DNA of 64,000 nucleotides from Candidatus Kapaibacterium sp. (GCA_038229915.1 JBBRNY010000001.1:33693-97692); one strand, 5' to 3'. Positions 1-17,566 are shown, counted from the stretch's first letter. Numbers and translations are program-made. The notes: generated from the letters alone by a model not told the origin.

Positions 1-1
1 A

Positions 2-154: not shown

Positions 155-159
155 CTGTA

Positions 160-1236
160 ATGTCACAAAAAAAGTATATAACGATCGGATTCGACGCCAG
201 CCGCGAACCGCTCGATGAATTGTTTTGGGTCGAAGCCGAAGTTGATGGCTCATGGACAACGATCACCACCTGCGACCGTCTGCGCTCTCGACGTGAGATC
301 GTCGAGCATGTCAGTGCGCTTGATTCTGCATTGATCGGAGTTGATTTCGCTTGTAGTTTTCCGATAGGGTTTTTGGAATACGTTGCATCCCAAAAGGTCG
401 CAACGACCCACCGAGAACTCAGCAAAAAGATCAGACAAGACCTCAAGAAAAATACCGATGACGGTATCCGTGTTTGGATCGATCTGATGGCGGCATATCG
501 CGAATCGAATGTCGAAACTTCTGATGAAACGCGGGCAAGAATTTTCCGCGGCAATCAGCGCCCCGACAACCGTCGCCGCCCTGAAATACCGATCGTCGAG
601 CGTCGCACCTTGGTCGAGCGTTTCCGTCGTATCGAGCGCATCCTTCGTCGCCAACAGCCCGAAGCACTGACAACGACACTGGGCATTCGCTACAATAAAT
701 TGACGGCACGGTATGAATACACCGAGTCGAATGCACGCGGACGTGCCGCGATCATTGGTATTGCACTGCTCGAACAACTTCGCGAAGTAAAACCCGAGAT
801 CGCCATTTGGCCGTTCGATAAACCCGCAGCCCTGACGGTTGCCGAAGTTTTTCCGAAAATGTTCGATGAGAAAATGCGACTCAGCAATGACGCCCTTCGC
901 GAATATTTTGATAGCGAAGAAGATAATGCACTTCATATCCCCAAAGAAGTTCGCGAGCAGGTGTATGCTCATCCGAAAGCACGCGAGGCCGTGTTTGCAT
1001 TACTTGGGATATTGAGTGCCGAGCGCCGCGAAGACAAAACTCTTCGCCCGATCAGAGACTATCGTGATGGTTTTTATGAAAACCCTGAAATACAACTCGA
1101 AGGCTGGGCGTATGGGGTCGGCTATAAAGAATTTCGACCGGATCCTAAAAAAATTGTGATCGCCGAACCGACGACAGAAACTGTTTCGGTAACGGAAATT
1201 GCCGAGCCGGCTATTGCTTCAACTCCGCAGGAGTAA
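160..1236 (+). CDS. hypothetical protein in the dcw cluster between murC and murB (possible RNase H-like fold)
   Basis: 358-aa ORF that exactly fills the murC-murB gap on the same strand. N-terminus YITIGFDAS...ALIGVDFACSFPIGF resembles the beta1-Asp / beta-strand pattern of RNase H-like (DUF429-type) proteins. The central part is Arg/Glu-rich. I could not recognise any ATP-grasp (Ddl) motifs. Confidence 0.6.
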   Translation: MSQKKYITIGFDASREPLDELFWVEAEVDGSWTTITTCDRLRSRREIVEHVSALDSALIGVDFACSFPIGFLEYVASQKVATTHRELSKKIRQDLKKNTDDGIRVWIDLMAAYRESNVETSDETRARIFRGNQRPDNRRRPEIPIVERRTLVERFRRIERILRRQQPEALTTTLGIRYNKLTARYEYTESNARGRAAIIGIALLEQLREVKPEIAIWPFDKPAALTVAEVFPKMFDEKMRLSNDALREYFDSEEDNALHIPKEVREQVYAHPKAREAVFALLGILSAERREDKTLRPIRDYRDGFYENPEIQLEGWAYGVGYKEFRPDPKKIVIAEPTTETVSVTEIAEPAIASTPQE

Positions 1237-1239
1237 GGT

Positions 1240-2163
1240 GTGGATCATCTTCGCAACTTGAGAGAAAAACTTACCGGTACTATCCGCGAGGATGTACCTC
1301 TTGCGCCGTTTACGACATTTCGTATCGGCGGCAACGCAAAGATCTATGTCGAGCCTACCACCGCTGAAGATGTGATCACCATTGAGCAATATGTTGCCGA
1401 GCACCAGGTCCCGCTATTTATTATTGGTAACGGATCAAACGTCCTGATCAGTGACAGTGGCTTCGATGGCATTGTAATGAATTTGGAGACAGGGTTCAAT
1501 ACTCTTGCCTGTGATGAACAAATTGTTACGGTCGGTTCGGGTGTACGAATGGCCACATTTGTTGATTTTGTTATTCGCAATAAATTGCGAGGAGTTGAAA
1601 TGCTTGCCGGCATCCCCGCCACTATCGGCGGTGCTGTTTGGATGAATGCCGGTTGTTATGGCGGCGAAACAAGCGATCATCTTCTTGATGTTTCTATTAT
1701 CCGTGATCGTGCTCTGGTGAAATTAACAAAAGAGCAGTGTGGTTTTCGTTATCGCCATACTGGTTTTCTAAAAGATGATGTTGTCCTTTCAGCACGGTTT
1801 GCGTTTGAGATCGGCGACCCAGTCGAGCTTCGTGAAATTAAATTGAAGCATCTCAAACATCGTAATGATGTACAGCCCGTAAATCTACCCAACTGCGGTT
1901 CGGTATTCAAGAATCCGAAGCCGAGATTTAGCGCAGAGTTGATCGAACAAGTCGGTTTGAAAGGTACTCGAATCGGCGGTGCGCAGATCAGCCCTAAGCA
2001 CGCAAATTTTATTGTAAATATTGATCATGCATCGGCAAGTGACATTATCGCATTAATGAATCTTGCCAGAAAAAAAGTTTTTGATGAGCATCAAATCGTA
2101 CTCGAACCTGAAGTACAACTCATCGGCTTTGTTAGTGACCCCATCGTGAAGCTCCCGAACTGA
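1240..2163 (+). CDS. murB: UDP-N-acetylenolpyruvoylglucosamine reductase
   Basis: GTG start. LAPFTTFRIGGNAKIYVEP and FIIGNGSNVLISDSGFDGIVMNL form an FAD-binding MurB signature, in dcw context. Confidence 0.9.
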   Translation: MDHLRNLREKLTGTIREDVPLAPFTTFRIGGNAKIYVEPTTAEDVITIEQYVAEHQVPLFIIGNGSNVLISDSGFDGIVMNLETGFNTLACDEQIVTVGSGVRMATFVDFVIRNKLRGVEMLAGIPATIGGAVWMNAGCYGGETSDHLLDVSIIRDRALVKLTKEQCGFRYRHTGFLKDDVVLSARFAFEIGDPVELREIKLKHLKHRNDVQPVNLPNCGSVFKNPKPRFSAELIEQVGLKGTRIGGAQISPKHANFIVNIDHASASDIIALMNLARKKVFDEHQIVLEPEVQLIGFVSDPIVKLPN

Positions 2164-2221
2164 ATCTCGTTTTCAAAGACAAGGTAATTGAGCGGATGTA
2201 TGTACTTCAGAAAGAAGCAAC

Positions 2222-3283
2222 GTGCAACTGCATATCAAACGACCAGGAAAGGATCATCACGAAGCATCGCCGAGAGGCTATGCTCCGCTTGATGAAGTAC
2301 GTCCTATCGAAGAACTCCTCGAAGAGTCGTTTCATAGTGATGGTGATCTCCTGGACACTGAAAGATCAAGCTGGAAGACATCGCGCTTGATCCCAAGAAT
2401 GTTATTCGTTGGCGCAATACTCTTGCTATTGGGTATTGTGTTTTTTGCGCGTGAGTTTCAATCTGGCGAGCCGTTGCAATCAGTGCGTGTCGAGGGCAAT
2501 CACGAGTTAATGACCAGCGAAGTACTCTCGCTTGCTTCGATCGACAGATCACACAAGTTCTACGACATCGATCTCAAAGGCATCGAACAGCGTGTGGCAA
2601 AGCACGGGCTTGTTCGTCAGGTCAGCATTCGCCGCGAAACGCACCCAAACACTATCGTTATTCATATTGATGAGCGCACTCCGATCGCGATGATCCGCTC
2701 GGCAAGTGGCGATCCTATTCTCGTTGATAATGATTTTCGTTTTTTCTTGCCAAAAAAACTTTCGGGTTTGCTTGACCCAAATAAATTACTGGCTGTGCCG
2801 GTACTAACGGGTATTACCGAAAAAGATACCGTTGCAATATTAGAAATGTCGCACATCGTCCATGAGATCACCACGACGGGTGATAGTTCGCTGCGCGAAG
2901 CCATCGGCGAATTGCGCCGCGCGCCGACCGGGGCATATGTGATCTATACTTCATTTTCGATGACACCGATCTTCATCGGCTCGCCGAGCGATGTTCGGTT
3001 TATGACAACCATCGAGCGCGACAGCAAGACATCGCAAAGCGCAAATGAACAGCGTCTGTTCGATCATCAGATCCAACTTCTGGCAAAACTATGGAAGCAA
3101 CAGTTGCGCAATGAAATTTGGTCACGTTCAACACTCTATGTAGATGCCCGTTTCAATGGACAAATCATTGTCCATCGCAAGGAGCACTCTGCAACAGCTA
3201 CCATTGCGATCGATAGCGCAAAGCGCCCGATCGCCTCGGCAGATCAGACATCCGGAGTTTACACTACAACCGCAGGACAATAA
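2222..3283 (+). CDS. ftsQ: cell division protein FtsQ (POTRA domain)
   Basis: Cytoplasmic N-terminus, one TM segment (LIPRMLFVGAILLLLGIVFFA), then a POTRA-like VRVEGNHELMTSEVLSLASI. Position between murB and ftsA. Confidence 0.8.
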   Translation: MQLHIKRPGKDHHEASPRGYAPLDEVRPIEELLEESFHSDGDLLDTERSSWKTSRLIPRMLFVGAILLLLGIVFFAREFQSGEPLQSVRVEGNHELMTSEVLSLASIDRSHKFYDIDLKGIEQRVAKHGLVRQVSIRRETHPNTIVIHIDERTPIAMIRSASGDPILVDNDFRFFLPKKLSGLLDPNKLLAVPVLTGITEKDTVAILEMSHIVHEITTTGDSSLREAIGELRRAPTGAYVIYTSFSMTPIFIGSPSDVRFMTTIERDSKTSQSANEQRLFDHQIQLLAKLWKQQLRNEIWSRSTLYVDARFNGQIIVHRKEHSATATIAIDSAKRPIASADQTSGVYTTTAGQ

Positions 3284-4656
3284 TGCAATACAACGAACAC
3301 TATCATCCATCAAAACCGTCGCCGATGTCATCGGCGCCAATGATCGGCGTGCCGGCAATGCTCGAACCGAGTAGGATCATTGTTGGTCTCGATATCGGCA
3401 CCACCAAAGTGTGCGCTATCGTTGCCGCGGTCTCTCTGAACGAGCCACATTCGATGACCATCCTTGGTGTCGGCACAGTTGCCGCCGATGGGCTGTCACG
3501 CGGAGTTGTGACGAACATTGATAAAACTGTTCGCTCGATAGAGCGTGCTGTTGCCGAAGCCGAGGCACAGTCGGGCGTAAAGATTCGCGAAGTGGTTGTT
3601 GGTATTGCGGGCGATCACATCCAATCATTCCAATCACGCGGTGTAGTGACGATCTCGAATCAAGATCGTCAGATCCGCCCCGAAGATATAGGGCGTTTGC
3701 TCGAAGACGTGAAGCGTATTCATCTGCCAAGCGACAGAAAGATCTTGCACGTGATCGCACAAGAGTTTATTGTTGACGGACAAGACGGATTTTACGAAGA
3801 ACCTGTCGGAGTCTCGGGCGTTCGTCTCGAGGCTACTGTTCACGTGATCAATGGCTTGGTTACTGCGGTGCAAAATATTTATAATTGCGTCGAGCGCGCG
3901 GGTTTGCGCGTTCACGACATTGTACTCGAACCACTTGCATCAAGTTATTCGGTTCTTGATGAAAAGGAAAAAGAAGCAGGCGTTGCACTCGTTGATATTG
4001 GTGGCGGCACAACTGATATTGCCGTCTTTGAAGAAAAAACTATTCGACATACGGCAGTGATCGGTATTGCCGGGCAAAAAGTGACTGAAGATATTCGCCG
4101 TGGCTTACAAATTCTTGGCGATCAGGCTGAGCGTCTCAAACGCGAATACGGTTGCGCTGTAGTGTCGCATATCGTTCGCGATGAGATCATTCAGCTTCCG
4201 GGTCTTGCCGGTCGTAAGCCGCGCCAGATACCACGTTCGCTCCTTGCACGTATTATCCAACCGCGTATGGAAGAAATGCTCGAGTTCTCGTATAACGAGA
4301 TCAAGCGTTCAGGTTTTGCGAGAAATCTTGGCGCCGGTGTCGTTCTGACTGGCGGAGGTTCGATGATCAATAGCACTCGCGAACTTGCCGAAGCTATTTT
4401 TAATATGGATGTCAAGATCGGAATGCCGATGAGTTTCGGCGCCGGGCTTGTCAAAGAGATCGAATCGCCGGTCTATGCCACTGCGGTCGGGCTGGTGTTG
4501 TATGCGTTCAAGAATTGCTCCCCAAGCTCATTGCCATCGTTCGTTGAAGAAGAACGCTCGAGCAATCAGCACGAAGAAGAATACATCGAAGATGAAGAGT
4601 CGCGCGAGAAACCGAACGTCATTGAAAAAATGAAACGTTGGTTTGAACATTTATAA
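3283..4656 (+). CDS. ftsA: cell division protein FtsA
   Basis: IVGLDIGTTKVCAIVA actin-like phosphate-1 motif and VDIGGGTTDIAVF. The ATG overlaps the ftsQ stop (ATAATG). An internal Met near 3358 (MLEPSRIIVGLD) is an alternative start. Confidence 0.9.
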   Translation: MQYNEHYHPSKPSPMSSAPMIGVPAMLEPSRIIVGLDIGTTKVCAIVAAVSLNEPHSMTILGVGTVAADGLSRGVVTNIDKTVRSIERAVAEAEAQSGVKIREVVVGIAGDHIQSFQSRGVVTISNQDRQIRPEDIGRLLEDVKRIHLPSDRKILHVIAQEFIVDGQDGFYEEPVGVSGVRLEATVHVINGLVTAVQNIYNCVERAGLRVHDIVLEPLASSYSVLDEKEKEAGVALVDIGGGTTDIAVFEEKTIRHTAVIGIAGQKVTEDIRRGLQILGDQAERLKREYGCAVVSHIVRDEIIQLPGLAGRKPRQIPRSLLARIIQPRMEEMLEFSYNEIKRSGFARNLGAGVVLTGGGSMINSTRELAEAIFNMDVKIGMPMSFGAGLVKEIESPVYATAVGLVLYAFKNCSPSSLPSFVEEERSSNQHEEEYIEDEESREKPNVIEKMKRWFEHL

Positions 4657-4696
4657 TAATTTTTATACACGTTAGTATTTGTTGGAGGATAGAACA

Positions 4697-6184
4697 ATGA
4701 TCGAACTCGATAGCAAAGAAGATTACGGCGCCAGAATAAAAGTCATCGGTATCGGCGGCGGCGGATCAAATGCCGTCAACGCGATGATCGACCGCGGACT
4801 CATCGGCGTAGAGTTTTGTGTGCTCAACACAGACATCCAAGCCTTGCAAGCTTCAGCGGCATCGCTGAAATTGCAGATCGGCAAACACCTCACTCGTGGG
4901 CTCGGTGCAGGTGCAAACCCTGACATTGGTCGTCGCGCTGTCGATGAAGATCACGAAGAAATTTCGCGATTGATCGGCAATAGTGATATGGTCTTTGTCA
5001 CTGCAGGTATGGGCGGCGGCACTGGTACCGGTGGCGCAGCACGCGTCGCGCAGATCGCCAAAGAGTGTGGTGCGCTTGTCGTAGGTATTGTCACTAAGCC
5101 ATTTCTTTTTGAAGGGAAGCGTCGTTTTCAACAAGCCGAAGACGGCATTCAAGAACTTCGCAAAAATGTTGATACGCTGATCGTTATTCCAAATCAAAAG
5201 TTGTTGGCACTTGTCGCTGAAAGCACTTCGCTACTTGACGGATTTGAAATAGCAAATCAAGTCTTATACAATGCTACTCGTGGCATTAGCGAACTCATTA
5301 CTCGTCACGGACATATCAACGTCGATTTTGCAGATGTTCGTACAGTAATGACCGATATGGGTGATGCCATTATGGGTGCCGGAGTTGCAAGCGGTGCGCA
5401 CCGGTCGGCAATTGCTGCTGAGAATGCGATCAGTTCTCCATTACTCGAAGGTGTTTCGATCCAGGGTGCACAAGGTGTCTTGGTAAATATCACTGGCGGG
5501 CGCTCGATGACACTGCTCGAAGTCAGTGAAGCAACGCAGATCATTCACGATGCAGCGGGCGACGACGCAAATATTATCTTCGGCGCTGTGCTCGATGAAA
5601 CGATGGACGAAGAGATCATGGTCACCGTGATCGCAACAGGATTTAATAACAAACCGACATTCACCGGGTTTGCAATTCAAGATAAAAATACTGTTCCATT
5701 CATCCCTGCCGAAGAAGCTCTCGGAGCAAAGCAAAAGCCATCGGTCGTGAGAATGACTCAGCCTATCAGTGCTGATGAATATGAAGCTCGAAAGAAGATC
5801 ATCGCTTCATCCCCACATCAGCATGAGCAGCACGAAGAGATGATCGCTGATGCGCAGCCGAAAGTTGAGCGTATGTCCAGAGGTACACTCGGCGAACGTG
5901 AAGAAAGCCCGAATGCTTTTGACCGTCTATCGGCAGGGGCGTTCCGTGCTTCGTCGATCAGATTGACACCTCAGAATGAAACATCACACGTCCCAAGCGG
6001 ACCGCGTGACCTGAAAGAATATGATACACCGGCGTATTTGCGTCGTGGTATTAATATCCCGACCATCGAAGAGCAAGAGGTCTCCGTCGAGCAAGAGCAG
6101 CCAGTATTTGAAGATAGCTATACTGCCGCACCTGTTCGCGAGCGCGACGACCGCCCGACGTTCTTAAGAAAAATTATGGATTGA
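4697..6184 (+). CDS. ftsZ: cell division GTPase FtsZ
   Basis: GGAGGA ribosome-binding site 7 nt upstream of the [20 protein letters not shown] and [11 protein letters not shown] are tubulin-like GTP motifs. Long disordered linker and a C-terminal [10 protein letters not shown] peptide. Confidence 0.95.
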
Positions 6185-6202
6185 TCACATCACTACAATA
6201 CG

Positions 6203-6535
6203 ATGATACAACATTCAATGACATCTACCACATTTGATATCGAAGGATACAAAGTGGTAAAAACATTTGGTATGGTGCGTGGCATCATTGTGCGGTCACG
6301 TTCGGTGATCGGCAATATTGGCGCCGCATTTCAGATGTTCGTCGGCGGTAACATTAGCATCTATACCAAGCTGTGCGAGGAAGCACGCGAGCATTCATTT
6401 CAGTTGCTTCTCGAACACGCTGACTCGATGGGCGCGAATGCGATTATCGGCGTTCGCTATGATGCAACCGAGATCGCCGCAGGAGTGAGCGAGGTTCTTT
6501 GTTACGGAACTGCCGTGATGGTAGAAAAGAAATAA
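6203..6535 (+). CDS. ybjQ: YbjQ/UPF0145 family protein
   Basis: 110 aa; YKVVKTFGMVRGIIVRSRSVIGNIGAAF...GANAIIGVRYDATEI...VLCYGTAVMV matches the YbjQ (DUF74) fold signature. Confidence 0.85.
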   Translation: MIQHSMTSTTFDIEGYKVVKTFGMVRGIIVRSRSVIGNIGAAFQMFVGGNISIYTKLCEEAREHSFQLLLEHADSMGANAIIGVRYDATEIAAGVSEVLCYGTAVMVEKK

Positions 6536-6552
6536 TCTTGAGTCTTAACCAT

Positions 6553-6594
6553 AAAAAAAGCCTTGCTCTTTCTGAGCAAGGCTTTTTTATTTAT
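6553..6594. terminator. bidirectional rho-independent terminator
   Basis: A-tract, GCCTTGCTC, 5-nt loop, GAGCAAGGC, then TTTTTTATTTAT, between the convergent ybjQ and the 6608-8236 gene. Confidence 0.8.
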
Positions 6595-6607
6595 ACAAAT
6601 GTAATAC

Positions 6608-8236
6608 TTATTGGCGAATCACCAAAACATTAAATCTCTCGCCGTTCGGGATATTGGTTGCTTGATCTTCGAGAAATATTTCCCAACGATTTGCTGCGCC
6701 ATTCCATTGGACACCGTAACCGAGTCCGTCAAACACACCACCACCAAGATTTTTCTTGAGCGGTGCCGCTACTGATTGATGAGTGACAAGCACAATATCG
6801 CTCTGGAGCATTCCGGGATAATTTAAGAATGTCACCCACGGGGAATTTGCGATAATATTTGCGGCTCCGACTGTATGAACATAGGCGGTTTTAGAATTAC
6901 CACCAACTTTAATAAAGCCATTATCAATATACAAAGATGTTCCGCTGGTACTGTTACCACTGTATCCGGCTTTCACACCGACACCGGTTGCGCTCTCGCC
7001 ATAAACTCCTGCTGCCGAAGTACCTGTCGAGCTGAGGCCATGAACACCGTAACCGTTACTGAGTGTAGATAGTCCTTGCACACCATCCCCTGCGCTTGAT
7101 GTCCCGGCGACGCCGATCGCTACATCAGTTGTTCCAAAGACACCAATTCCTGTTGAAACAGTTGGGTTTGGTCCGCTATTGCCGACAAGCCCATACACGC
7201 CGATATTTCCACTCGACCCGTACACACCTTTGCCGTTGTTATCGCTGCTAAAACCCCAAACACCATTGACTCCGGTACCTTTTATACCGACACTGCCATT
7301 TGTATTAGTAATAGACATTGATGGGCTTGGCGAGTTATCACTTTGTACAAAAGGCAAAGAAATGGTGACATTCGTTGGCTCCCATGAATTATTAGCGGCA
7401 TTCCAAATAAGTGCTTGCGTGTTTTGTGGCACGTTCGCACTGACATTAAAATTTCTGATCTTCGCAACATTCGGATTTGGATAACTACCGATCAAGTCAC
7501 CATTTGCTGGTCCCGTCGGTGGCAGCTCTATCGGGATTACTCCTGGAGCAATTTTGAAAAGCGTTACCGAACTATCAGTGATCTTTTGAGTACCTATTGA
7601 TCCATCGGTGACACTAAGAGTTGCCACGGGGCCGTTTGCATTGAGAACTGTAATACTTCCATCGGTATTTTGGACGCCCTGTACACCGCTTGCACCAGCA
7701 CCACCGCTCGAGCTGATCGTGATCTTTTTTGTTGCGACATCTTTATTGATGGTCGTCGACCCACCACCCACGAGCACTACATCGCCAAGAAGTGCATTCA
7801 AACTTGAGACCCCAGCAGTACCACCACCGCCACCGACAACACTGCCAGCCACATCGGCATAAGAAGCGCGAAGTGCGTACGGAGCCGATACTAATGCCGT
7901 TCGTGGGCTGAGTTCTGTGCCGCCATCGACACTCACTCCGAGAAAATATGCACGATCAAATGCTACGGTCACAGGAATTTCTGTCACTGAACCAATGATC
8001 GCATTGAATATGCCTTTAACAACTGGCACTGTTTGAACTTCAGTGAAGATCGCCACAGCACCCGAAGCACTTTCATAGAGCTTAAGAGTTAGTTGATGAT
8101 TCCCGTTCGGGATCAAATTCCCTGACGCATCGCTCAGAACACCCTGATAACTTATCGTGCGTGGGATCTGTGCAAAAGCTGTTGCCGATGACAACGACAA
8201 GAGTATGAGAAAACAAAATGTAGCAACGTGTTTCAT
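6608..8236 (-). CDS. secreted Gly-rich repetitive protein (beta-helix/tail-fibre-like surface protein)
   Basis: Signal peptide MKHVATFCFLILLSLSSATAFAQ. N-terminal ISYQGVLSD...LTLKLYES...FTEVQTVPVVKGIFNAIIGS module resembles the conserved head of FCB-group tail-fibre-like proteins. About 140 aa of Gly/Ser/Val periodic repeats (GVYGSSGNIGVYGLVGNSG, GVFGTT..GVAGTS..). No T9SS C-terminal domain. Confidence 0.6.
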   Translation of the reverse strand: MKHVATFCFLILLSLSSATAFAQIPRTISYQGVLSDASGNLIPNGNHQLTLKLYESASGAVAIFTEVQTVPVVKGIFNAIIGSVTEIPVTVAFDRAYFLGVSVDGGTELSPRTALVSAPYALRASYADVAGSVVGGGGGTAGVSSLNALLGDVVLVGGGSTTINKDVATKKITISSSGGAGASGVQGVQNTDGSITVLNANGPVATLSVTDGSIGTQKITDSSVTLFKIAPGVIPIELPPTGPANGDLIGSYPNPNVAKIRNFNVSANVPQNTQALIWNAANNSWEPTNVTISLPFVQSDNSPSPSMSITNTNGSVGIKGTGVNGVWGFSSDNNGKGVYGSSGNIGVYGLVGNSGPNPTVSTGIGVFGTTDVAIGVAGTSSAGDGVQGLSTLSNGYGVHGLSSTGTSAAGVYGESATGVGVKAGYSGNSTSGTSLYIDNGFIKVGGNSKTAYVHTVGAANIIANSPWVTFLNYPGMLQSDIVLVTHQSVAAPLKKNLGGGVFDGLGYGVQWNGAANRWEIFLEDQATNIPNGERFNVLVIRQ

Positions 8237-8420
8237 ATCTTTACAATTTAAATTTTCACCACAATTCGATAGGTAAGATGCGAGCAAGAGTAATCCAATC
8301 GAAGCTACCCGTTTTTACTTTCGGATCTCTTCGGTTGAGCTACGGACAAGACGCCTTACCACAAGGCAAAAACACCTTATTCTTTAAACGACTGATCAAA
8401 TCAGTTTGTGACAGGAATCT

Positions 8421-8457
8421 TTAAAAAAGAAAGGCGGACTTAGAGTCCGCCTTTTGA
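8421..8457 (-). terminator. rho-independent terminator for the lipoprotein gene
   Basis: GGCGGACT, TAG, AGTCCGCC stem with flanking A/T tracts. Read on the minus strand it is a hairpin followed by UUUCUUUUUU. Confidence 0.7.
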
Positions 8458-8476
8458 TACAACTGATGATATCCTC

Positions 8477-9199
8477 TTACTTTTTGAGGTTCTCATCCTT
8501 CCCGAGGTCCCACTGCATAATATATCTGCCGCGTTGGTCGTACCAATGGCCGTGGTCTTCCGGTGCGCCGGGTCCGGTGGATGGGGCACTCGATCGACTC
8601 AGGAGTTGAAGATTTGAAATTTCGGTTGATGCATCATAGATCGTACGTTGAAGGATCAGTCCAAGATCGCGAGCAAAGAAACGAACAACATAACTGCCGT
8701 CGCTCTTGGTATTGTCGATATACTTGACTGCAACAACATCATGAATAACCTCCTGATGTCCGGGTAGGTAATAATCTGTATATCTTCCGACAACCGTTGC
8801 TTCGATCTGATCCGATTTATCGGCAAACCATTTCGAGCCAACAGAAAGATCACCTTGTAATGCTATGGTCCCTTGGTCAGAGCCCGTCTCGGAGAGAATG
8901 CATTGTTGAATTCCTGCATTGGAAGAACCAACTTTGTAGTAGTAGAGCACCGAATTATTAGTACCCGTGTCCTTTTTTATAAGCTTTGCATAACTGTCAT
9001 ACGCCACACCGACAATGATCTGATAGGTTGTGGTATCTGTGACAGTTGTCGTGCCTTCGGAATAGACATACTGGGTGCCGTTGACCGTAGGGAAAAAATA
9101 CTGGTCGGCAGGTGCATTTGCCGGAAGGCTTGGGCTTGTCGGGGCGTTACAAGAAGCAAGGAATATTCCAAGGAAAAGAAAAACCAGATTTTTTTTCAT
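8477..9199 (-). CDS. hypothetical lipoprotein
   Basis: MKKNLVFLFLGIFLASC lipobox. 240 aa, Thr/Tyr/Gly-rich, beta-rich. Confidence 0.6.
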   Translation of the reverse strand: MKKNLVFLFLGIFLASCNAPTSPSLPANAPADQYFFPTVNGTQYVYSEGTTTVTDTTTYQIIVGVAYDSYAKLIKKDTGTNNSVLYYYKVGSSNAGIQQCILSETGSDQGTIALQGDLSVGSKWFADKSDQIEATVVGRYTDYYLPGHQEVIHDVVAVKYIDNTKSDGSYVVRFFARDLGLILQRTIYDASTEISNLQLLSRSSAPSTGPGAPEDHGHWYDQRGRYIMQWDLGKDENLKK

Positions 9200-9257
9200 A
9201 CTAATTCCTCCTCAAAAATTCACACTGCTATTTAGTTAGTCCTACACAAGCAATGCT

Positions 9258-10583
9258 TTAAAAGTGGAAATAAATCCCGGTTGAGATCTCCACGTTTAAG
9301 TTTGCTTTGTCATCGGTCACCCCAGGCGCAACACCTGTTCCGGCATTAAAGCTACTGCTGGTAATAATATCTTGGTATTGTGTTGCCACGTTGCTATTGA
9401 TCCTCGAACCACGGAGCCCGAGCAAGACACCAACATCACCCGTTACATCATATCGAACGCCAAGCTCAGAGCTGATGATCGGGCCGAGGGTCGAAGCAGC
9501 AAGCCCGACATTTGCCGCGAAGGTAAGTCTTGAGCTGATCGGTTTGCGATACTCAATAAGACCACCGCCCCAGACAGTCTGTTCGTGAACGAGATCACTA
9601 ACGATCTGATATTGCAATAGCGGAGCATTTGGATCAACAAACGTGGTGCTCAATTTTTTCTGCGTGACGTTTGCAGTGCCGAACGATGCGCCAATCCAAA
9701 ACTCCGGAGTGAGTTGATACTTCAAACTAATATCCGAGTTGGTAATGATCGGCATCGAAGTGTTGGTAGCAGCGGTATTCGGAAATTGTTTTCCGATACC
9801 TTCGTGTATTGCGAAATCAAAACGCTCGAGGAATCTCGGTGAATGTGTTTGCATCACGCCGCCGATACTTGGGTGTTCGCGCTGAGGGGCATTCGGATCG
9901 CGAATAAAACTAGCACTGGCTATTAGTGGTAATGCTTGCGGTATCTGAGTCAAACGCTGACGATCAATGAGCACCGGAAGAAGATCGACCGACAGATCCG
10001 AGCCGTTTGCTAATTGAGGTGTCTCTTGTATTAGGGGCGCTCCGATTGACTGGCGGTTAATATTTACTTCGCGACCACGTTTCTGCGAGTTCAAAATTTC
10101 CGAATTTCGGGCAACGATATTTGTGCTTGATGGTGTAGCCGTCTGTTGTCCGACATTCTCAGAAAGAGATTGTTTGATTTGTGAATCTGGGATAGTAGAA
10201 AGTTGTGAAGAATTATTTCCGCTCCATAATAAATAACCGGAGCTAAGCCCTATTAACAGGGCGGCGACCGCAACCGCACTCATTCTCCAAACACTTGAAG
10301 CAAGTATCCCTGTGCTTGTTGCAACACTTGTCGCGACCGGAACAGCTGAAACGACCGGCGACATCGCGCCGATAGCAGCCCATAATTTTTGTTCGGCTGA
10401 ATATGGCACAACGATCGCACTGCGATCGGCGCTGATAATTGCCGACTGCTTCATATAGCTACGTAAGATCTCGCGACGTTCGGGCGAAACCGAAAGTCGG
10501 TGCAGCAATTCCGCTTCCTGATCGCCGGAAAGACTTCCGTCGAGGAATTGTTGAAGCGACTCTGAAATATTTTCCATTCCCAT
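9258..10583 (-). CDS. membrane-anchored anti-sigma factor with C-terminal OMP beta-barrel-like domain
   Basis: Immediately downstream of the ECF sigma gene. N-terminal cytoplasmic anti-sigma-like helix (ESLQQFLDGSLSGDQEAELLHRL), a single TM (MSAVAVAALLIGLSSGYLLW), a Ser/Asn/Gln-rich linker, then about 150 aa of alternating-hydrophobic beta-strands ending GIYFHF (OMP_b-brl-like). Confidence 0.6.
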   Translation of the reverse strand: MGMENISESLQQFLDGSLSGDQEAELLHRLSVSPERREILRSYMKQSAIISADRSAIVVPYSAEQKLWAAIGAMSPVVSAVPVATSVATSTGILASSVWRMSAVAVAALLIGLSSGYLLWSGNNSSQLSTIPDSQIKQSLSENVGQQTATPSSTNIVARNSEILNSQKRGREVNINRQSIGAPLIQETPQLANGSDLSVDLLPVLIDRQRLTQIPQALPLIASASFIRDPNAPQREHPSIGGVMQTHSPRFLERFDFAIHEGIGKQFPNTAATNTSMPIITNSDISLKYQLTPEFWIGASFGTANVTQKKLSTTFVDPNAPLLQYQIVSDLVHEQTVWGGGLIEYRKPISSRLTFAANVGLAASTLGPIISSELGVRYDVTGDVGVLLGLRGSRINSNVATQYQDIITSSSFNAGTGVAPGVTDDKANLNVEISTGIYFHF

Positions 10584-10609
10584 CTCTATTGTTGATCCCT
10601 ATAAAATTG

Positions 10610-11200
10610 TTATTGTTCGTCTCGATAATATGGCTCTAATATTTTGCGAAGTTCTTCGCGAGCCCGATATATTCTACTTTTGACTGCGGCGATCGTCAGT
10701 TTCATAACCTCGGAAATTTCCTGATAGCTCAACCCCTGATATTCGAAGAGCACAAACGGCTCGCGATTTTCTGGCGGTACTTGCTCGAGCGCAGCCTGTA
10801 TTCTGGCTGCCCAATCTTCTCCCATTTCCGGATTACTCGAACTGAGACTGATATAATTATCAATGCTATCATGATCTTTACGATCGCGAATTCTATTGAG
10901 GCAAAGATTGTGAGCGATCGTAAATATCCAACCGGAAATACTTTTTTCTTCGGTGAATTGATAGGCTCGCTGCCACACTCTGATAAACACTTCTTGAAAT
11001 AGATCTTCAGCTTCTTGAGCATTGCCGAGCATTCTTAGGCAATAGGCATAGACCCTCTGGCGGTAGCGAAGGTACAGCTCGGTAAATGCCTCACGCTTTC
11101 CTTCTCGGAATGCGCGAAGCAACGCAATCTCATAAGACTGATCCTGTTCGTTCGGACCTATCCCAGAGCGTCTTTCCACTGTTTGTAAAGCTGGTGCCAC
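10610..11200 (-). CDS. ECF-type RNA polymerase sigma-70 factor
   Basis: Region 2 (YLRYRQRVYAYCLRMLGNAQEAEDLFQEVFIRVW) and region 4 (LSYQEISEVMKLTIAAVKSRIYRAREELR) motifs. The ORF has no ATG near its 5' end; a GTG/TTG start is likely. Confidence 0.85.
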   Translation of the reverse strand: MAPALQTVERRSGIGPNEQDQSYEIALLRAFREGKREAFTELYLRYRQRVYAYCLRMLGNAQEAEDLFQEVFIRVWQRAYQFTEEKSISGWIFTIAHNLCLNRIRDRKDHDSIDNYISLSSSNPEMGEDWAARIQAALEQVPPENREPFVLFEYQGLSYQEISEVMKLTIAAVKSRIYRAREELRKILEPYYRDEQ

Positions 11201-11239
11201 CGCGATTCGATAGCTTAGTGAATTTTAGGGTACTTCCCT

Positions 11240-11268
11240 ATAATAAAGCAACACCATAGGAGAGTCAA
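11240..11268 (-). promoter_or_regulatory. putative sigma70-type promoter for the ECF sigma / anti-sigma operon
   Basis: Read on the minus strand: TTGACT, 17 nt, TATTAT, about 35 nt upstream of the sigma start. Confidence 0.45.
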
Positions 11269-11328
11269 AGTTGCAAGACCAAAAGCACTTATTTACACCT
11301 AATACGGTAACTCACTTAATATCAATGA

Positions 11329-12246
11329 TTAACCGTTGATATTTATCGCCGCCCTCACAAAGCCGTCTGCATCTGCAATAAGCTTCTTGGCTTCTTGTGG
11401 GCTTACTGATCTTTTCTGCATTACGATAGCGCTCTTGACGTGATTGCCGCTGGTCTTTAATAACTCGGCTGCTTTCTCGTACTCAACTCCTGTTGCTAAC
11501 ATAATTATACGTTTTGCCCGCTCGCTGAGTTTCTGATTGGTGAGTTGGAGATCGACCATCATATTTTCATACACTTTTCCGAGACGAACCATCGTCGTGG
11601 TCGTGATCATTGTTACGATCATTTTTTGTGCTAATGCTGATTTCATTCTTGTCGAACCCATCAATACTTCGGGACCAACGACAGGACAGATCGCTTCGAA
11701 TAAATAACTCGTATCAAGACTTTCGCGTGGGTTAGTCGTGATTAGGACAGCCGCGGAACCCAATTCCGACGCCTTCTTCAGAGCTCCTATCACAAATGGT
11801 GTGCGTTTGCTGGCGGCTATACCAATGACCATATCTTTATCACTACACCGTTGCAATGCAATTTCGAGCCCACCTTTTTCGCTGTTATCTTCAGCGCCTT
11901 CTTGCGAACGAAACACTGCATCTTTTCCGCCGGCAATAATAGCTTGTATCTGGGCAGGGCTTGTCCCAAAAGTCGGCGGACACTCCGCCGCATCGATCAC
12001 ACCCATTCTGCCACTGGTGCCGGCACCAACGTAAAATAATCTTCCGCCATTCGAAAGAAGAGAAACAAGTTTGTTCACTACTTTTTCGATCTGCGGTATC
12101 TCCAGTTTCACCACCTGCGCAACTTTGGCATCTTCATCATTGATGAGCTTCAAGATTTCGCCCGTGCTCATCGTATCCAAGTTCATAGAACTTGGATTGC
12201 GTTGCTCAGTTGCAAGGTTTGAGACTTCCGTAAATAGCTCTGTCAT
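11329..12246 (-). CDS. murQ: N-acetylmuramic acid 6-phosphate etherase
   Basis: SIS domain LFYVGAGTSGRMGVIDAAECPPTFG. 305 aa. Confidence 0.85.
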   Translation of the reverse strand: MTELFTEVSNLATEQRNPSSMNLDTMSTGEILKLINDEDAKVAQVVKLEIPQIEKVVNKLVSLLSNGGRLFYVGAGTSGRMGVIDAAECPPTFGTSPAQIQAIIAGGKDAVFRSQEGAEDNSEKGGLEIALQRCSDKDMVIGIAASKRTPFVIGALKKASELGSAAVLITTNPRESLDTSYLFEAICPVVGPEVLMGSTRMKSALAQKMIVTMITTTTMVRLGKVYENMMVDLQLTNQKLSERAKRIIMLATGVEYEKAAELLKTSGNHVKSAIVMQKRSVSPQEAKKLIADADGFVRAAINING

Positions 12247-12293
12247 ATACTATAAATAAAATTGTTTTTATTGATATTAATTTCCACGTGGAA

Positions 12294-14123
12294 CTATCGT
12301 AAAGACCCCACGAGAATTGAAATATCCGTTGGTGATACTCCGGGAAGTCTCGAAGCCTGTCCGATGGTTTCCGGTTTCACTTTTTCCAGCACTTCCCTTG
12401 CTTCGGTGCTCAGTGCTTTCAAGACCTTGAACGACAAGCCGATAGGTATCTTTTTGCTTTCATGCTCGCGAAGTTTTTCTATCTGATTCTTATGCTGTTT
12501 GATGTAGCCTTCATATTTGATCTCAGTATTCGCAAGTAATAATAGCTCCTCATTACAAGATAATAAAAGCTCTTTACCACTTTCATACTGCTCGAGCAGG
12601 TCTTTGATAGACGTACCTGTGGTAACGATATAACTCTTGATGGTCTGTTTGAGAGCCGGATCAGATGGTGTTGCGATCTTCTCCTTCTCAGACCATGCGA
12701 TCAACTTATCTAATAGCTCTTGCTTCCTGAGTACTCTATCATGGGCTGATTGATCGATCAAGCCAAATTCGAAAGCTTTCTTTGAGAGTCTCAGATCAGC
12801 ATTATCCTGCCTTAAGATAAGACGATGCTCGGCGCTCGAAGTAAAGAGACGATACGGCTCTTCCTGTATTTTATTTATAAGATCATCAATAAGCACCCCA
12901 ATATAGCCTTCGTCGCGAGATATAGTAAATTCGGGCATCCCTTTTATTTTTGCCGCGGCGTTCACACCTGCTACTATACCTTGGGCTCCAGCCTCTTCAT
13001 AACCCGAAGTACCGTTTATCTGCCCTGCAAAATAAAGGTTTTGAACATGCTTCGATTCAAGCGTATGAAAAAGCTGGTAAGCAGGAAAATAATCATACTC
13101 CACTGCATAGCCCGGGCGAATCATCACCACATTCTCAAGACCTGGCACTGTTTTTAATGCCACTAATTGGATATCAGCTGGAAGACTTGTCGAAAAGCCG
13201 TTCACGTAAACGACATCGCCGTCAGCTTCTTCGGGTTCGAGAAAGAGGTGGTGTTGGGTCTTATCCGGGAAGCGAGTTACCTTATCCTCTATAGATGGGC
13301 AGTATCTTGGCCCCTTACCGTGAATAACGCCAGTAAACATCGGCGACTCGGCAAAACCTTTAGCTAGCTCGGAGTGCGTTACTTCCGACGTGTAGGTAAT
13401 GTAGCAATGTATCTTATTCTTAATTTCGATATCCGATCGAGAAGAAAATGGGATGATCTCGTCATCACCTTGCTGTATCTCAAGATTTTCGGTATTGATG
13501 CTCTTCAAAGATATTCTTGGCGGAGTTCCGGTCTTCAATCTATAACTAACAAGGGACAATGCTCCATCGGGTTCTGTTCGCAATGAAGTTGGTTCTTCCC
13601 CAAACCGTCCACCAATTGTCTGGTTCAATCCGGTGTGCATTACCCCATTAAGAAATGTGCCTGCGCATATAATAACAGCCTTTGCAGTGAGTTTAGTACC
13701 ATCCGAGAGTACTACACCCTTCACTTGTCCACCAATTATCCATATTTTATGCACGTTGGCACTGACAATCATATCAGGATCAAGTTCACGAAGTTTGCGC
13801 TGAGCAATGATCGGGTACTGACTTCTTGAGACTTGGGCACGGGGCGACCAGATAGCAGGACCTTTGGATTTGTTGAGCATTCGAAAATGAAGCATTGCTT
13901 CATCAGCGATCTCACCCATTAATCCACCGAGCGCGTCGATCTCTCGCACGACCTGTCCTTTTGCTGTCCCACCGATAGCGGGATTACAGGAAAGCTCCCC
14001 TACTTTATCGGCGTGCAAAGACAATAGCCGAACCTTCAGCCCCATCCGATGGGCTGCCGATGCCGCTTCGATGCCGGCATGACCGCCACCAACTACGATA
14101 ATATCTGCGAATGGCTGTTCCAC
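12294..14123 (-). CDS. mnmG: tRNA uridine 5-carboxymethylaminomethyl modification enzyme MnmG (GidA)
   Basis: [20 protein letters not shown]-binding motif. 609 aa, adjacent to mnmE. Confidence 0.95.
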
Positions 14124-14196
14124 GTGGAACGGTTGTTTAATTTAATGAAAAATACGAATAATAAATGTCTTTATGTGCTATAAATATGGAAATAGT

Positions 14197-15492
14197 TTAT
14201 TTTCCTATGCACATTTTACTAAAAATATAGTTTAAGTTATCTTCGGCTATGTTATATCCTAACAATGAAGCTATTTTATCAGCTGAAGAGCGAATGTCTT
14301 CGGCAACAATAGATATTTCATTGTTTTTCATTAAGTTAGCAAGCTGTTGCTTCGTGGCTTCAATGATCATGGACTCCGATCTCGATACGGAATACCCGGT
14401 TCTTGCTGAATCTATTAAGGAGATCATTGATGCAATGCTCGCGATCAAGCTCGGCAGTCCTTCGCCCGTCTGTGCCGATAAGAACATCCCTTTTCGAAAA
14501 CTATCGACATCGCATTTATTATGTACGACAATCTCGCCTTGCAAGGCTTGCACAGCGCGGCTTTCAGGGTCAGTTACTCGCAATATGACATCGGCACGCT
14601 CGGCGATGTTCGTCCCCAGGGCGATGCCCTTTGTTTCGATCAGATCGTTTGCCTCGCGAAGTCCGGCAGTATCGATCAGCTTTACCTTAAACCCTTCGAG
14701 CATCACGAAGGCTTCCACATAATCCCGGGTCGTACCCGGTGTTTCGCTAACGATGCTTCGTTCGTATCTCAGCAACGCATTGAAAAGACTACTCTTACCA
14801 ACATTCGGTGGGCCGGTTAGCGCGAGCGAATAATAGCCTTTATTTATTTGCTCATTGATAGCTTTATGCTCAAGTTCATCTAATTTGGCGAGGATCGTCT
14901 TTACTTGTACCTCGAAACCGAAAATTTCGACGTTATCGGACTCGCCAAAATCTATTTGTGCATTGACTTGAGCGAGCAACGAAATAATATCATCATAGAC
15001 AGCACGGAGGTGATCAAATTTTTCTGCCAATACACGCTCGACCGATCGGAGTGATCCTTCACTTGATGCATCGAGGCGCATCAAGGTTCGTTCGAGTTCT
15101 TCAAGCGTTTGTTTGCCGTTCATAAATGCGCGGCGCGAAAACTCACCATGCTCTGCAAGCCTTGCCCCATATAGCCGGAGCTGATTTCCGAGCATCTCCA
15201 TAATCACTGGGGAGCCATGCGTATGGAACTCTACAATGTCTTCGCCACTATATGAACGGGGCGCGCGCCAAACGGTTACAACCACATCATCAATATGATT
15301 GCCGCTCGAATCGCAAACATTGGTATAGAAAGAATCACCGCCAAGGGCAGTGAATATCTTTTCAGGCGTGTCAATACATTTTCCGGCAATACGAATAGCA
15401 TCCGCACCCGCGAGGCGAAGCGTAGCCAGTGCGCTCGAGCCAAGCGGCGTCGAGAGCGCGTAGATTGTATCGTGTAAAATTAACAGTGACAT
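14197..15492 (-). CDS. mnmE: tRNA modification GTPase MnmE (TrmE)
   Basis: GPPNVGKSSLFNALL G1 motif and the C-terminal CIGK. Confidence 0.95.
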   Translation of the reverse strand: MSLLILHDTIYALSTPLGSSALATLRLAGADAIRIAGKCIDTPEKIFTALGGDSFYTNVCDSSGNHIDDVVVTVWRAPRSYSGEDIVEFHTHGSPVIMEMLGNQLRLYGARLAEHGEFSRRAFMNGKQTLEELERTLMRLDASSEGSLRSVERVLAEKFDHLRAVYDDIISLLAQVNAQIDFGESDNVEIFGFEVQVKTILAKLDELEHKAINEQINKGYYSLALTGPPNVGKSSLFNALLRYERSIVSETPGTTRDYVEAFVMLEGFKVKLIDTAGLREANDLIETKGIALGTNIAERADVILRVTDPESRAVQALQGEIVVHNKCDVDSFRKGMFLSAQTGEGLPSLIASIASMISLIDSARTGYSVSRSESMIIEATKQQLANLMKNNEISIVAEDIRSSADKIASLLGYNIAEDNLNYIFSKMCIGK

Positions 15493-15504
15493 TAGAGCAA
15501 CCTA

Positions 15505-15550
15505 AAAACAGAAAGTTCTCTGTTTGGGTGTCATCCAAACAGAGAACTTT
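15505..15550 (-). terminator. hairpin terminator between yidC and mnmE
   Basis: Perfect 16-bp inverted repeat AAAGTTCTCTGTTTGG / CCAAACAGAGAACTTT with a 7-nt loop, followed on the minus strand by UGUUUUUAGG. Confidence 0.65.
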
Positions 15551-15595
15551 AAAACTGCATTACTCGAAAATTAAAGAACCACGAGTTACTATAAC

Positions 15596-17431
15596 TTATT
15601 TTTTCTTCTTTGGTGGAAGTGGTTTCTTCCCTGCCATTGTGTCTTGACGTTGTTTACGAGCGTTCTTTTCCATATCCTGCATCCTTGACATAAAACCTTT
15701 CTTGCCTTGTGCTTGCATTTTTAATGCTTCAAGATCAAGCGGCGGAAGGAATTGCTTGTTATAGACTTGCTGTGCAATACCAAAAATATTGAACATAAAG
15801 TAATAGAGCGCAACACCTGACGGCAAATTATTGAACAAGAACGTAAAGAAGATCGGCATAATATATGCCATTGTTTTTTGGCGTGGGTCGGTCGTTTGGA
15901 ATGCGGATTGCACGACCATCGTAATACCCATCAATAGTGTCAAGCCGGAAAGCTGATCGCCAATGATCGGTATATGGGTTCCTAACTTAAAGAGTGCATC
16001 GGGCACCGAAAGATCGTTGATCCAACTAACGAACGGAGCCTGACGAAGTTCGATCACATTGCGAAGCACTGCATAGAGCGCAAACAAGATCGGCATTTGC
16101 AAGATCATCGGCAAGCAGCCGCCGGCGGGGTTTACGCCGTAAGTTCGATACATCTTGAAGGTTTCTTCTTGCTGTTTTTTCTGATCGTCTTTATACTTTT
16201 CCCGGACTTCGGTCATCAATGGCTGCAACGCTTGCATCTTGCGCATCGCCTGCATTTGGCTGCGAGTGAATGGCATCGTTACGAGTTTGATCATGATCGA
16301 GAAGACGATGATCACTAATCCCCAATTCGAAATAAAACCGTGGAGCCACATAAAAAATGGGAACAGCACGTAGATGCTGATCGGGCGTACTAATAAACGC
16401 CATCCGAAATCCATAACGCCATCAAGTGCCGGTGCAATGGAAGTCAAGCGTTCATACTCTAACGGACCGAGATAATATTCTACTGAAAGTACTTCTTTAC
16501 CCGGCGAAGCGATCGGCAGCGAAACATTCATCACATAATGCTCGATCCTTCCGCCATCAGGAGCGGGGAAAGAATTGCCGGTGATCTCCGAGCTCACAGG
16601 GCGCGGGGTTTCGGGTATCATCGCCGCGAGAAAATACTGTGTACGTGCTGCGACGTATTCGACATCACCATTAAATGCTTTATGAACTACCTCGCCATTC
16701 TTGCTGGCATCAACTTCTTCCGAACCTACTTTTGAAACCGAGAAAGCACGTGCTACCTGTGACTCGCCATCAGTATGTGCTTCATTATATGGTATTGGAT
16801 TATCAACTGAAAGAGCATAACGATAGCCGCCGACTTTATTTTGCAAGCCATTGAGATGATACTCAATACGCATTGCATATTTATCAGAGTATATATGAAT
16901 GATCTTTTCGATCGAAGCCCCTGAGTCTATCTTCGCAACCATTCTGATCGTCAGTGAATCATGGTAACCGAGAGTCTTCTGAGAGTTATCATCAATGGTA
17001 AACGGCAGATCTTTGGTTGATACTTTTCTGCCATCGGTTGCGACAAAAACAAGATTCACGTCACCCGATTTGACTGTTTTGTCAACCATCTCCAGTGGCG
17101 TGCGTTGAAATGTCTTATAATTTTTCAGTACCCAACTAATGATGTTTCCGCCGTGAGAAGAGATAACAGCACTTACCAACGGGGTTTCGATAAATTTCGA
17201 ACTTGCCGCCGTTGTGGTATCACTCGGAAATAACGCTGAGCGCATTTCCTGTGGGGCAATAGGTTTGGCAACCGTCGCAGGGCCGGTTGAGTCGGTTTTT
17301 GGGATAAAACTGTCTGTGACAACAGGTTTAGCAGGAGGTGGGACGCGTTTCGGTTGGCTGAAGATCATCCAAGAGAAAAACACCAGGGCGATCATCGCAA
17401 TGCCGATCGTAGTCGTACGTGTAGAATTCAT
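15596..17431 (-). CDS. yidC: membrane protein insertase YidC
   Basis: 611 aa with an N-terminal TM, a large periplasmic domain and a C-terminal five-TM core (LQPLMTEVREKYKDDQ...), ending in a Lys-rich tail. Confidence 0.9.
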   Translation of the reverse strand: MNSTRTTTIGIAMIALVFFSWMIFSQPKRVPPPAKPVVTDSFIPKTDSTGPATVAKPIAPQEMRSALFPSDTTTAASSKFIETPLVSAVISSHGGNIISWVLKNYKTFQRTPLEMVDKTVKSGDVNLVFVATDGRKVSTKDLPFTIDDNSQKTLGYHDSLTIRMVAKIDSGASIEKIIHIYSDKYAMRIEYHLNGLQNKVGGYRYALSVDNPIPYNEAHTDGESQVARAFSVSKVGSEEVDASKNGEVVHKAFNGDVEYVAARTQYFLAAMIPETPRPVSSEITGNSFPAPDGGRIEHYVMNVSLPIASPGKEVLSVEYYLGPLEYERLTSIAPALDGVMDFGWRLLVRPISIYVLFPFFMWLHGFISNWGLVIIVFSIMIKLVTMPFTRSQMQAMRKMQALQPLMTEVREKYKDDQKKQQEETFKMYRTYGVNPAGGCLPMILQMPILFALYAVLRNVIELRQAPFVSWINDLSVPDALFKLGTHIPIIGDQLSGLTLLMGITMVVQSAFQTTDPRQKTMAYIMPIFFTFLFNNLPSGVALYYFMFNIFGIAQQVYNKQFLPPLDLEALKMQAQGKKGFMSRMQDMEKNARKQRQDTMAGKKPLPPKKKK

Positions 17432-17530
17432 TCGCAGTCAGTGAGAGTCGTAACTCTGAAAATTAAGCCCGTTAAAACGCGCTATCGAAGTGGTTCGTTC
17501 AGGCTATGAAACACTGTCTTGGTGCTTCTT

Positions 17531-17560: not shown

Positions 17561-17566
17561 ACACGT

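Follow-up and report, generated by a model that had tools for sequence, protein, structure and literature searches.

Positions 6608-11268 of a 64-kb stretch of DNA (the window) from Candidatus Kapaibacterium sp. (GCA_038229915.1 JBBRNY010000001.1:33693-97692) carry four genes for an extracytoplasmic function (ECF) sigma factor, a predicted anti-sigma factor, a lipoprotein and a secreted fibre-like protein. We consider it likely that the block consists of two units set in core DNA, an envelope-stress operon made up of the first three genes (the triad, 11274-8421, minus strand) and an independent fibre gene (8413-6553). The triad would appear to be a sequence-distinct system of the kind with an anti-sigma factor spanning both membranes and, judged on its predicted structure and by analogy, may work like the Dma system of Bacteroides thetaiotaomicron. 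An earlier note on this DNA had described all four genes as one self-contained accessory island, in which a signal sensed at the envelope would control production of both the lipoprotein and the fibre. The features on which our account is built are as follows.

11250-11274, minus strand: probable ECF-type promoter GCAACTT-N13-GTGTT upstream of the sigma gene, overlapping a TTGACT-17-TATTAT match
10610-11200, minus strand: ECF (group 4) sigma factor, 196 residues, GTG start
9258-10583, minus strand: predicted anti-sigma factor, 441 residues
8477-9199, minus strand: lipoprotein, 240 residues, third gene of the operon
8421-8454, minus strand: intrinsic terminator closing the three-gene operon, stem 8454-8430 of 11 pairs (6 G-C) followed by a T-run
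8387-8413, minus strand: ECF-like promoter motif TGTCACA-N16-CGTT, directly after the operon terminator, with some 150 nt between it and the fibre gene
6608-8236, minus strand: predicted secreted fibre protein resembling the mosaic adhesive trimers (MAT-like), 542 residues, with a DUF7452-type C-terminal tip
6553-6594, either strand: bidirectional terminator separating the fibre gene from ybjQ, inverted repeat 6554-6568 / 6574-6588

The open reading frame listing places four minus-strand genes between ybjQ/ftsZ and murQ/mnmG, with ftsA, ftsZ and ybjQ on one side and murQ and mnmG on the other. They lie where the earlier note had put them, and its naming of the products as an ECF sigma factor, an envelope-spanning anti-sigma factor, a lipoprotein and a fibre-like secreted protein was right. 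The sigma and anti-sigma genes are separated by 26 nt and the anti-sigma and lipoprotein genes by 58 nt, with no terminator in either gap, and the lipoprotein gene has a strong ribosome-binding site, GAGGAGG. Both terminators given in the note are also confirmed. The 11-pair stem and T-run after the lipoprotein gene have equivalent hairpins at the same place in the related loci L003 and L004, while the fibre gene ends at a perfect inverted repeat (arms of 15 nt, loop of 5 nt), which should be able to work in both directions because A- and T-runs flank it.

A word search returned 39 homologues of the anti-sigma factor, all from metagenome assemblies labelled as Kapaibacteria or Ignavibacteriota, and scanning one genome per species gave 15 distinct loci. 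Using tblastn, the sigma and anti-sigma genes were found in all 15, the anti-sigma gene always directly 3' of the sigma gene, and the lipoprotein gene comes next in each of the 14 loci that reach past the anti-sigma gene. The full order is found again in the closest clade. In L004, where the anti-sigma factor is about 44% identical to that of the window, the order runs yidC-mnmE-mnmG-murQ-sigma-anti-sigma-lipoprotein-fibre-ybjQ-ftsZ-ftsA, and parts of this order recur in L003, L006, L020, L021 and L022. In ten of the 15 loci the fibre gene is missing from this position, and what comes after the lipoprotein gene is housekeeping: a TlpA-like protein, an HD-domain membrane protein with xerD, or anmK. 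The fibre gene adjoins the triad in one Kapaibacteria sub-clade only, and since housekeeping genes take its place in ten genomes the conserved unit is the triad, with the fibre gene as a clade-specific neighbour. The triad is kept in the distant locus L024 (P0197), where the anti-sigma factor is 24% identical and ends in YYRF; LAGC is the lipobox of its lipoprotein, which also contains a YEDVVAVEYK motif. The order is also kept on the P0202 contig for the genes present there. This persistence of gene order in the most distant profile matches would suggest that the triad functions as one unit.

Some of the database labels among these sequences look wrong. L003/L007 (CAYOJJ010000001.1) is labelled 'uncultured Alphaproteobacteria bacterium' and P0041 'Steroidobacteraceae bacterium'; gene content and identities of 58-83% group all of these with Kapaibacteria-type genomes.

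The same comparison bears on the proposal of an island. The GC content of the block is 0.46-0.475 against about 0.45 for the window, no tRNA was found in positions 1-20000 and no repeats bounding the block were found. Taken together with the presence of the triad in all 15 related genomes, this indicates that the block is core chromosome of the lineage and not a mobile accessory island. The earlier note had named universally conserved core synteny as the observation that would count against an island, and this is what the comparison of presence and absence across genomes returned for the triad.

The product of 10610-11200 is a group 4 ECF sigma factor of about 200 residues, containing regions 2 and 4 only. 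It matches Pfam Sigma70_r2 (4e-21) and Sigma70_r4_2 (9e-17), with no other sigma regions found, and passes the TIGR02937 sigma70-ECF model with 106.6 bits against a cut-off of 42.9. Its other top NCBIfam matches are generic (PRK05602, 130 bits; SigW, 122 bits; sigma_PG0214, 110 bits against a cut-off of 130). The place of the window's GTG start is taken by an ATG in L002.

Aligning the regions upstream of the sigma gene revealed that GCAACTT and GTGTT, 13 nt apart, are invariant at fixed spacing in 18 of 18 loci, with GTAATTG-N14-GTGTT at the equivalent place in the distant L024. ECF promoters are typified by an AAC-containing -35 element and a GT-containing -10 element a fixed distance apart. 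A position weight matrix built from the 18 orthologous sites scores the window's own sigma promoter at 31.1 bits, and the runner-up in the 64 kb reaches 12.6 bits and lies inside a gene. Across 279 kb of related loci the sigma promoters score 21-32 bits and all other sites 14.8 bits or less. The promoter is thus probably ECF-type and, as the conserved motif lies in front of the sigma gene itself, we infer that it is positively autoregulated.

The earlier note had read this region as a TTGACT-17-TATTAT promoter (11268-11240, minus strand). The match is real and its position stands, with 10 of 12 consensus positions making it the top sigma-70-type match in 6000-12500; its type does not, for the hexamers are not conserved, TTGAC becoming TTGGG, TTCGG, TTCCG or TTCAG in other loci and the TATTAT position varying. 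That the housekeeping sigma factor mainly drives the operon from this sequence, leaving GCAACTT and GTGTT to serve some other purpose, would fit the strength of the match in this one genome. We nonetheless think it improbable, given the invariance and fixed spacing of the ECF-type elements and the chance-level number of sigma-70-like matches in the same region (13 found against 10.7 expected).

Two further sequence elements were seen. A TCCACAAAA(T) motif recurs about 10-25 nt upstream of GCAACTT in L004, L006, L014, L019 and L020, and is not present in the window; it could be the binding site of a second regulator or an upstream promoter element. A direct repeat of 21 nt, 81% identical (8257-8277 / 11198-11218, minus strand), lies upstream of the fibre ATG and overlaps the GTG start of the sigma gene. 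Its exact 16-mer core, CTATCGAATNNNGGTG, occurs at 8257-8272 and 11198-11213, exactly two copies in the 64 kb. As a common regulatory site this repeat was rejected; it is absent upstream of the fibre gene in L003, L004, L006 and L022, and upstream of the sigma gene only L002, the closest relative, keeps it. It is read as a repeat specific to the lineage.

Following the earlier note's suggestion to look for ECF motifs upstream of 9199 and 8236, we found no sigma-type promoter before either the lipoprotein or the fibre gene, and the best site in the spacer between these two genes scores -1.7 bits, rank 99 in the window. Matching the sigma promoter with up to two mismatches gave four sites in the window against 5.9 expected, which fits chance. 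Three of these lie elsewhere than the sigma promoter; two are intragenic and none is upstream of a co-oriented gene.

The fibre gene instead has a motif of its own. TGTCACA-N16-CGTT occurs once in the window. L003, L004 and L022 carry GTCACA-N16/17-ACGTT at the corresponding place, and L006 and L020 lack it. On the sigma-promoter matrix the fibre motif scores -23 bits, rank 10,493 of 511,680. The gene itself starts about 190 nt past the operon terminator. Rfam searches of 6300-11500 gave only sub-threshold noise driven by the terminators, with no known RNA element in the 150-nt fibre leader. A further sequence, GTTTGCCACGYGKYGCAGGAATAAACTCGC, is common to the fibre leaders of L004 (~12230-12265) and L022 (~80-115), and was not seen in the window or in L003. 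In L023 a fibre homologue stands alone with no sigma gene nearby. The fibre gene is best read as a separate transcription unit, on the strength of the conserved terminator before it, its own upstream motif and its absence from this position in most relatives.

Several observations would nevertheless fit a single signalling and effector island in which lipoprotein and fibre are both under the sigma factor's control. Besides the window, at least five related genomes (L003, L004, L006, L020 and L022) have the four genes side by side and in one direction, and the fibre motif and the sigma promoter have a common loose shape, G-Y-M-A-C ... Y-G-T-T. In addition, the distant high-GC lineage represented by L024 (4452-9599) and the P0202 contig has a secreted protein of 784-799 residues 33 nt after the triad. 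With its IgGFc_binding and FlgD_ig domains this protein may be a substrate of type IX secretion, and it is a second example of a large surface protein behind the triad. Set against these are the strong conserved terminator that parts the lipoprotein and fibre genes, the very poor score of the fibre motif on the sigma matrix, the ten loci and the solitary L023 homologue in which the two are apart, and the uniformly negative island signatures of composition, tRNAs and repeats. We regard one island of four genes as quite unlikely, and control of the fibre gene by this sigma factor, which the earlier note had proposed, as unsupported and scarcely more probable.

The fibre open reading frame extends mechanically over 6608-8287, and the ATG at 8236, which opens the signal peptide MKHVATFCFLILLSLSSATAFA|Q, is most likely the true start of a protein exported through Sec. 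The N-terminus matches NF053851 (Bdello_MAT_N) with an E-value of 1e-7 and 31.9 bits, below the cut-off of 60, over model positions 2-77 of 162, and the identical partial match was obtained for eight of eight fibre homologues. The C-terminus matches PF24249 (DUF7452) at 3e-5. More than 355 homologues share the N-terminal ~250 residues, matching only the first 40-48% of the query, and differ at their C-termini, which carry Peptidase_S74 (PF13884), a YadA head (PF05658), DUF5907 (PF19264) or DUF7452 (PF24249). No matching solved structure was found by searching the PDB with the fibre sequence. We predict that the protein is a Sec-exported, MAT-like trimeric surface fibre.

The anti-sigma factor was modelled with AlphaFold2, using the alignment of the 39 homologues, and the model divides the protein into four predicted parts.

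10359-10583, minus strand: helical cytoplasmic anti-sigma domain, residues 1-75, four helices, predicted local distance difference test score (pLDDT) about 80
10215-10283, minus strand: single inner-membrane helix, residues ~101-123 (helix 95-123 in the model)
9837-10214, minus strand: disordered periplasmic linker, residues ~124-249, rich in Ser, Gln and Pro, pLDDT below 50
9261-9836, minus strand: eight-stranded outer-membrane beta-barrel, residues 250-441, ending GIYFHF (beta-signal-like)

The amino-terminal domain contains a block, EAELLHRLSVSPERR, that is invariant across the homologues (EAELLHxLSVSPE), and does not have the Cys residues of zinc-binding anti-sigma domains. It gives weak sub-threshold matches to PRK13920, 'putative anti-sigmaE', in eight of 15 members and to NF052375, 'antisigma', in seven of 15. 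From these matches and the position of the gene it would seem that residues 1-75 hold the sigma factor at the inner membrane. The most hydrophobic 20-residue segment of the protein spans residues 92-111. Beyond the membrane helix the linker varies in both length and sequence across the family, with pLDDT below 50 over residues 120-245. The C-terminal ~190 residues are conserved, always ending in G(I/L)YFHF with an invariant terminal Phe, and eight long beta-strands are predicted with pLDDT values of 78-94 within residues 255-440. Strand lengths run from 12 to 24 residues, and clear amphipathicity, with hydrophobic faces alternating with polar or small ones, is seen in seven of the eight; the alternation is weak in the long strand 325-348. 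The amphipathic strands together with the invariant terminal Phe support a barrel that would insert into the outer membrane, with the linker crossing the periplasm. PDB sequence searches with profiles of the barrel and of the N-terminal domain gave nothing meaningful.

The most conserved segment of the barrel domain is G-K-Q-F-P-N-x-x-A-T-N-x-S-x-P (residues 264-278, window 9750-9794), in which G264, P268, A272, T273, S276 and P278 are the conserved residues. It lies in the predicted first extracellular loop, with pLDDT below 50 at 272-275, and is a candidate for a surface-exposed sensing site.

It is conceivable that the anti-sigma factor spans only one membrane and that its C-terminal barrel is a soluble periplasmic sensor, similar to avidin, YceI or the lipocalins. 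No significant Pfam outer-membrane protein (OMP) family, including OMP_b-brl_2, was matched by the window protein, and OMP_b-brl was matched weakly by three of the 39 members. It would also be mechanistically unusual to insert a barrel that is still tethered to an inner-membrane helix. A soluble sensor would, however, have no need of a ~125-residue linker, nor would it be expected to have long strands with a lipid-facing hydrophobic side in seven cases out of eight or an invariant Phe at the end of a YFHF motif. Furthermore, Dma1 has been demonstrated to reach both membranes by dual-tag fractionation (Pardue et al. 2024, PMC10927553). We therefore judge a soluble sensor to be very unlikely and favour the outer-membrane barrel.

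A word search found ten homologues of the lipoprotein, among which its lipobox, LASC, is conserved. Scans of Pfam and NCBIfam gave no family assignment, and PHROGs returned no matches for either the lipoprotein or the fibre protein. Kinship with NigD, the lipoprotein of the Bacteroides systems, was considered and rejected, as none of the 11 family members matched NigD_N or NigD_C and no Pfam match was obtained up to an E-value of 10. A structural model made from the 11 sequences is all-beta with a predicted template modelling score (pTM) of 0.70, three of the five models being poor. Its weaker structural matches are lipovitellin (7.3), YmcC (6.2), MucB (6.1), RseB (6.1) and LolA (5.4), which would place the fold loosely among the LolA-like open barrels.

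Two roles may be considered for the lipoprotein. In one it is a negative co-regulator similar to RseB or MucB, which would bind the periplasmic part of the anti-sigma factor and sense lipid or lipopolysaccharide intermediates, and would not be an output of the system. The gene order of sigma factor, anti-sigma factor and third gene is that of rpoE-rseA-rseB, and in every locus, the distant ones too, the lipoprotein is strictly paired with the anti-sigma factor; it is this strict co-inheritance that keeps a modulating role alive. The poor quality of most of the models weakens the case, and in the Bacteroides systems the adjacent NigD is an output of the regulon (PMC10927553, PMC13114119). An RseB-like co-regulator is possible, if doubtful. 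By analogy with Dma1 we lean slightly towards the lipoprotein being a regulon output like NigD.

Bringing these observations together, we propose the following mechanism. At rest, residues 1-75 of the anti-sigma factor would tether the sigma factor at the inner membrane while the barrel anchors the same polypeptide in the outer membrane. Perturbation of the outer membrane, or a failure of barrel assembly, would expose the linker to periplasmic and then to intramembrane proteases. The freed sigma factor would transcribe the operon from GCAACTT-N13-GTGTT, producing more sigma factor, anti-sigma factor and lipoprotein, the last acting on the envelope as an output or serving as an RseB-like modulator. 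For the proteolysis, and for what the signal is, the proposal follows the Dma1/Reo and RseA precedents by analogy.

A number of points weigh against this account. For this organism it is drawn from sequence and predicted structures. The anti-sigma nature of the N-terminal domain is read from gene position and from hidden Markov model matches that are below threshold, and the membrane location of the barrel is taken from the model. The promoter in the window also matches the sigma-70 consensus and could serve two sigma factors. The matrix derives from orthologous autoregulatory sites, and its stringency may make it miss divergent promoters of the regulon, that of the fibre gene among them. Lastly, no tie to Dma1-3 was detected in the sequences. 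When 1.84 billion representatives were searched with a profile of the barrel domain, just 42 proteins were returned, and the Dma1 orthologues that are widespread in Bacteroidia go undetected. Common descent with Dma is unproven in view of this narrow profile, the missing Pfam OMP match and the three weak matches among 39 to OMP_b-brl, the two systems having been compared by profile search and layout.

A bolder version of the proposal would have the triad arise independently of the Dma/EcfO-Reo-NigD systems, or as their very deeply diverged sister, with the barrel and its YFHF beta-signal as a built-in reporter on barrel assembly and the integrity of the outer membrane, the lipoprotein sensing lipid as a co-regulator, and the regulon reaching the fibre gene through its divergent promoter. 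If true, outer-membrane damage would remodel the adhesive cell surface. We consider this combination a long shot.

Some features of the setting were also observed. On one side of the triad is the end of the cell-division cluster (ftsA, ftsZ, ybjQ) and on the other murQ-mnmG, to which the closest related loci add mnmE and yidC. Such a gene set is often found near a replication origin. The GC skew changes sign near 6.5 kb, coinciding with the switch in gene strand. Within the predicted operon mRNA a 17-nt inverted repeat, 82% complementary (9215-9231 / 11210-11226), links the 5' leader of the sigma gene to the spacer before the lipoprotein ribosome-binding site and is probably due to chance.

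The fibre protein resembles the MAT fibres of Bdellovibrio bacteriovorus (PMC10769870) in its Sec signal peptide, in a partial match to their beta-rich N-terminal domain of about 130 residues and in its Gly-rich repetitive middle, and would be of the type without an S74 domain. Tip-swapping has been described for MAT proteins (PMC10769870), and the homologues of the window fibre likewise have exchangeable C-terminal tips (S74, YadA-head, DUF5907 and DUF7452). It differs in that the match to NF053851 is below the cut-off and covers about half of the model, in that its trimeric state and surface location are predicted, and in that Kapaibacterium is not known as a predator. The fibre gene would thus extend the MAT-like mosaic superfamily to non-predatory relatives within the Bacteroidota.

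The triad has features in common with two other systems that signal across the envelope. As in FecI-FecR-FecA, an anti-sigma factor of the inner membrane would relay to an ECF sigma factor a signal received at the outer membrane. The window system, however, has no TonB-dependent transducer, FecR or DUF4974, and its receptor and anti-sigma factor would be one polypeptide. The likeness to sigmaE-RseA-RseB of E. coli and AlgU-MucA-MucB of Pseudomonas lies in the order of sigma factor, membrane anti-sigma factor and a periplasm-facing third component with a LolA-like fold, here a tentative prediction, in an autoregulated ECF promoter, and in a signal that would report on the integrity of outer-membrane proteins or lipids. 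In E. coli the C-terminal aromatic-x-Phe motif of OMPs activates DegS. Here the anti-sigma factor itself ends in such a motif, YFHF. The differences are that RseA has no outer-membrane barrel, RseB is soluble and not a lipoprotein, and the promoter consensus is not the same.

The closest parallel in architecture is the Dma/Reo kind. Dma1 (BT_4721) of B. thetaiotaomicron has a 40-residue sigma-binding N-terminus, one membrane helix, a long disordered region and an eight-stranded barrel, and is encoded with the ECF21 sigma factor Das1 (BT_4720), next to the lipoprotein NigD2 (BT_4719), which is a member of the regulon (PMC10927553). In P. vulgatus, reo, ecfO and nigD are adjacent (03760-03762) and respond to toxins that damage the outer membrane and to the gut environment (PMC13114119). 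The dual-membrane architecture is reported only from Bacteroidota, the phylum to which NCBI taxonomy assigns Kapaibacterium, in class Eximiradiia. The window system therefore has in common with Dma/Reo its phylum, an ECF sigma gene adjoining the anti-sigma gene and a lipoprotein gene beside the pair, as well as a predicted single inner-membrane helix, long disordered linker and C-terminal eight-stranded barrel, and by analogy it probably responds to outer-membrane stress. It differs in having no detectable sequence similarity and in its lipoprotein. Pfam shows no likeness between this protein and NigD; the lipoprotein gene is downstream within the operon itself, and the fold of its product is tentatively predicted to be LolA/RseB-like.

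Work on dual-membrane anti-sigma factors has so far been confined to gut Bacteroidales. The triad would add a compact, sequence-distinct family with the same architecture from a deep, free-living branch of the Bacteroidota, and with it a way of telling by comparison which features the Dma design cannot do without. It comes with good handles for such work, namely an invariant promoter, GCAACTT-N13-GTGTT, that is testable and would serve to define the regulon, an invariant predicted surface loop and a strictly co-inherited lipoprotein. Some 40 'hypothetical proteins' could be renamed as outer-membrane-tethered anti-sigma factors. Nothing is overturned by this system; it broadens a young family and supplies it with testable motifs.

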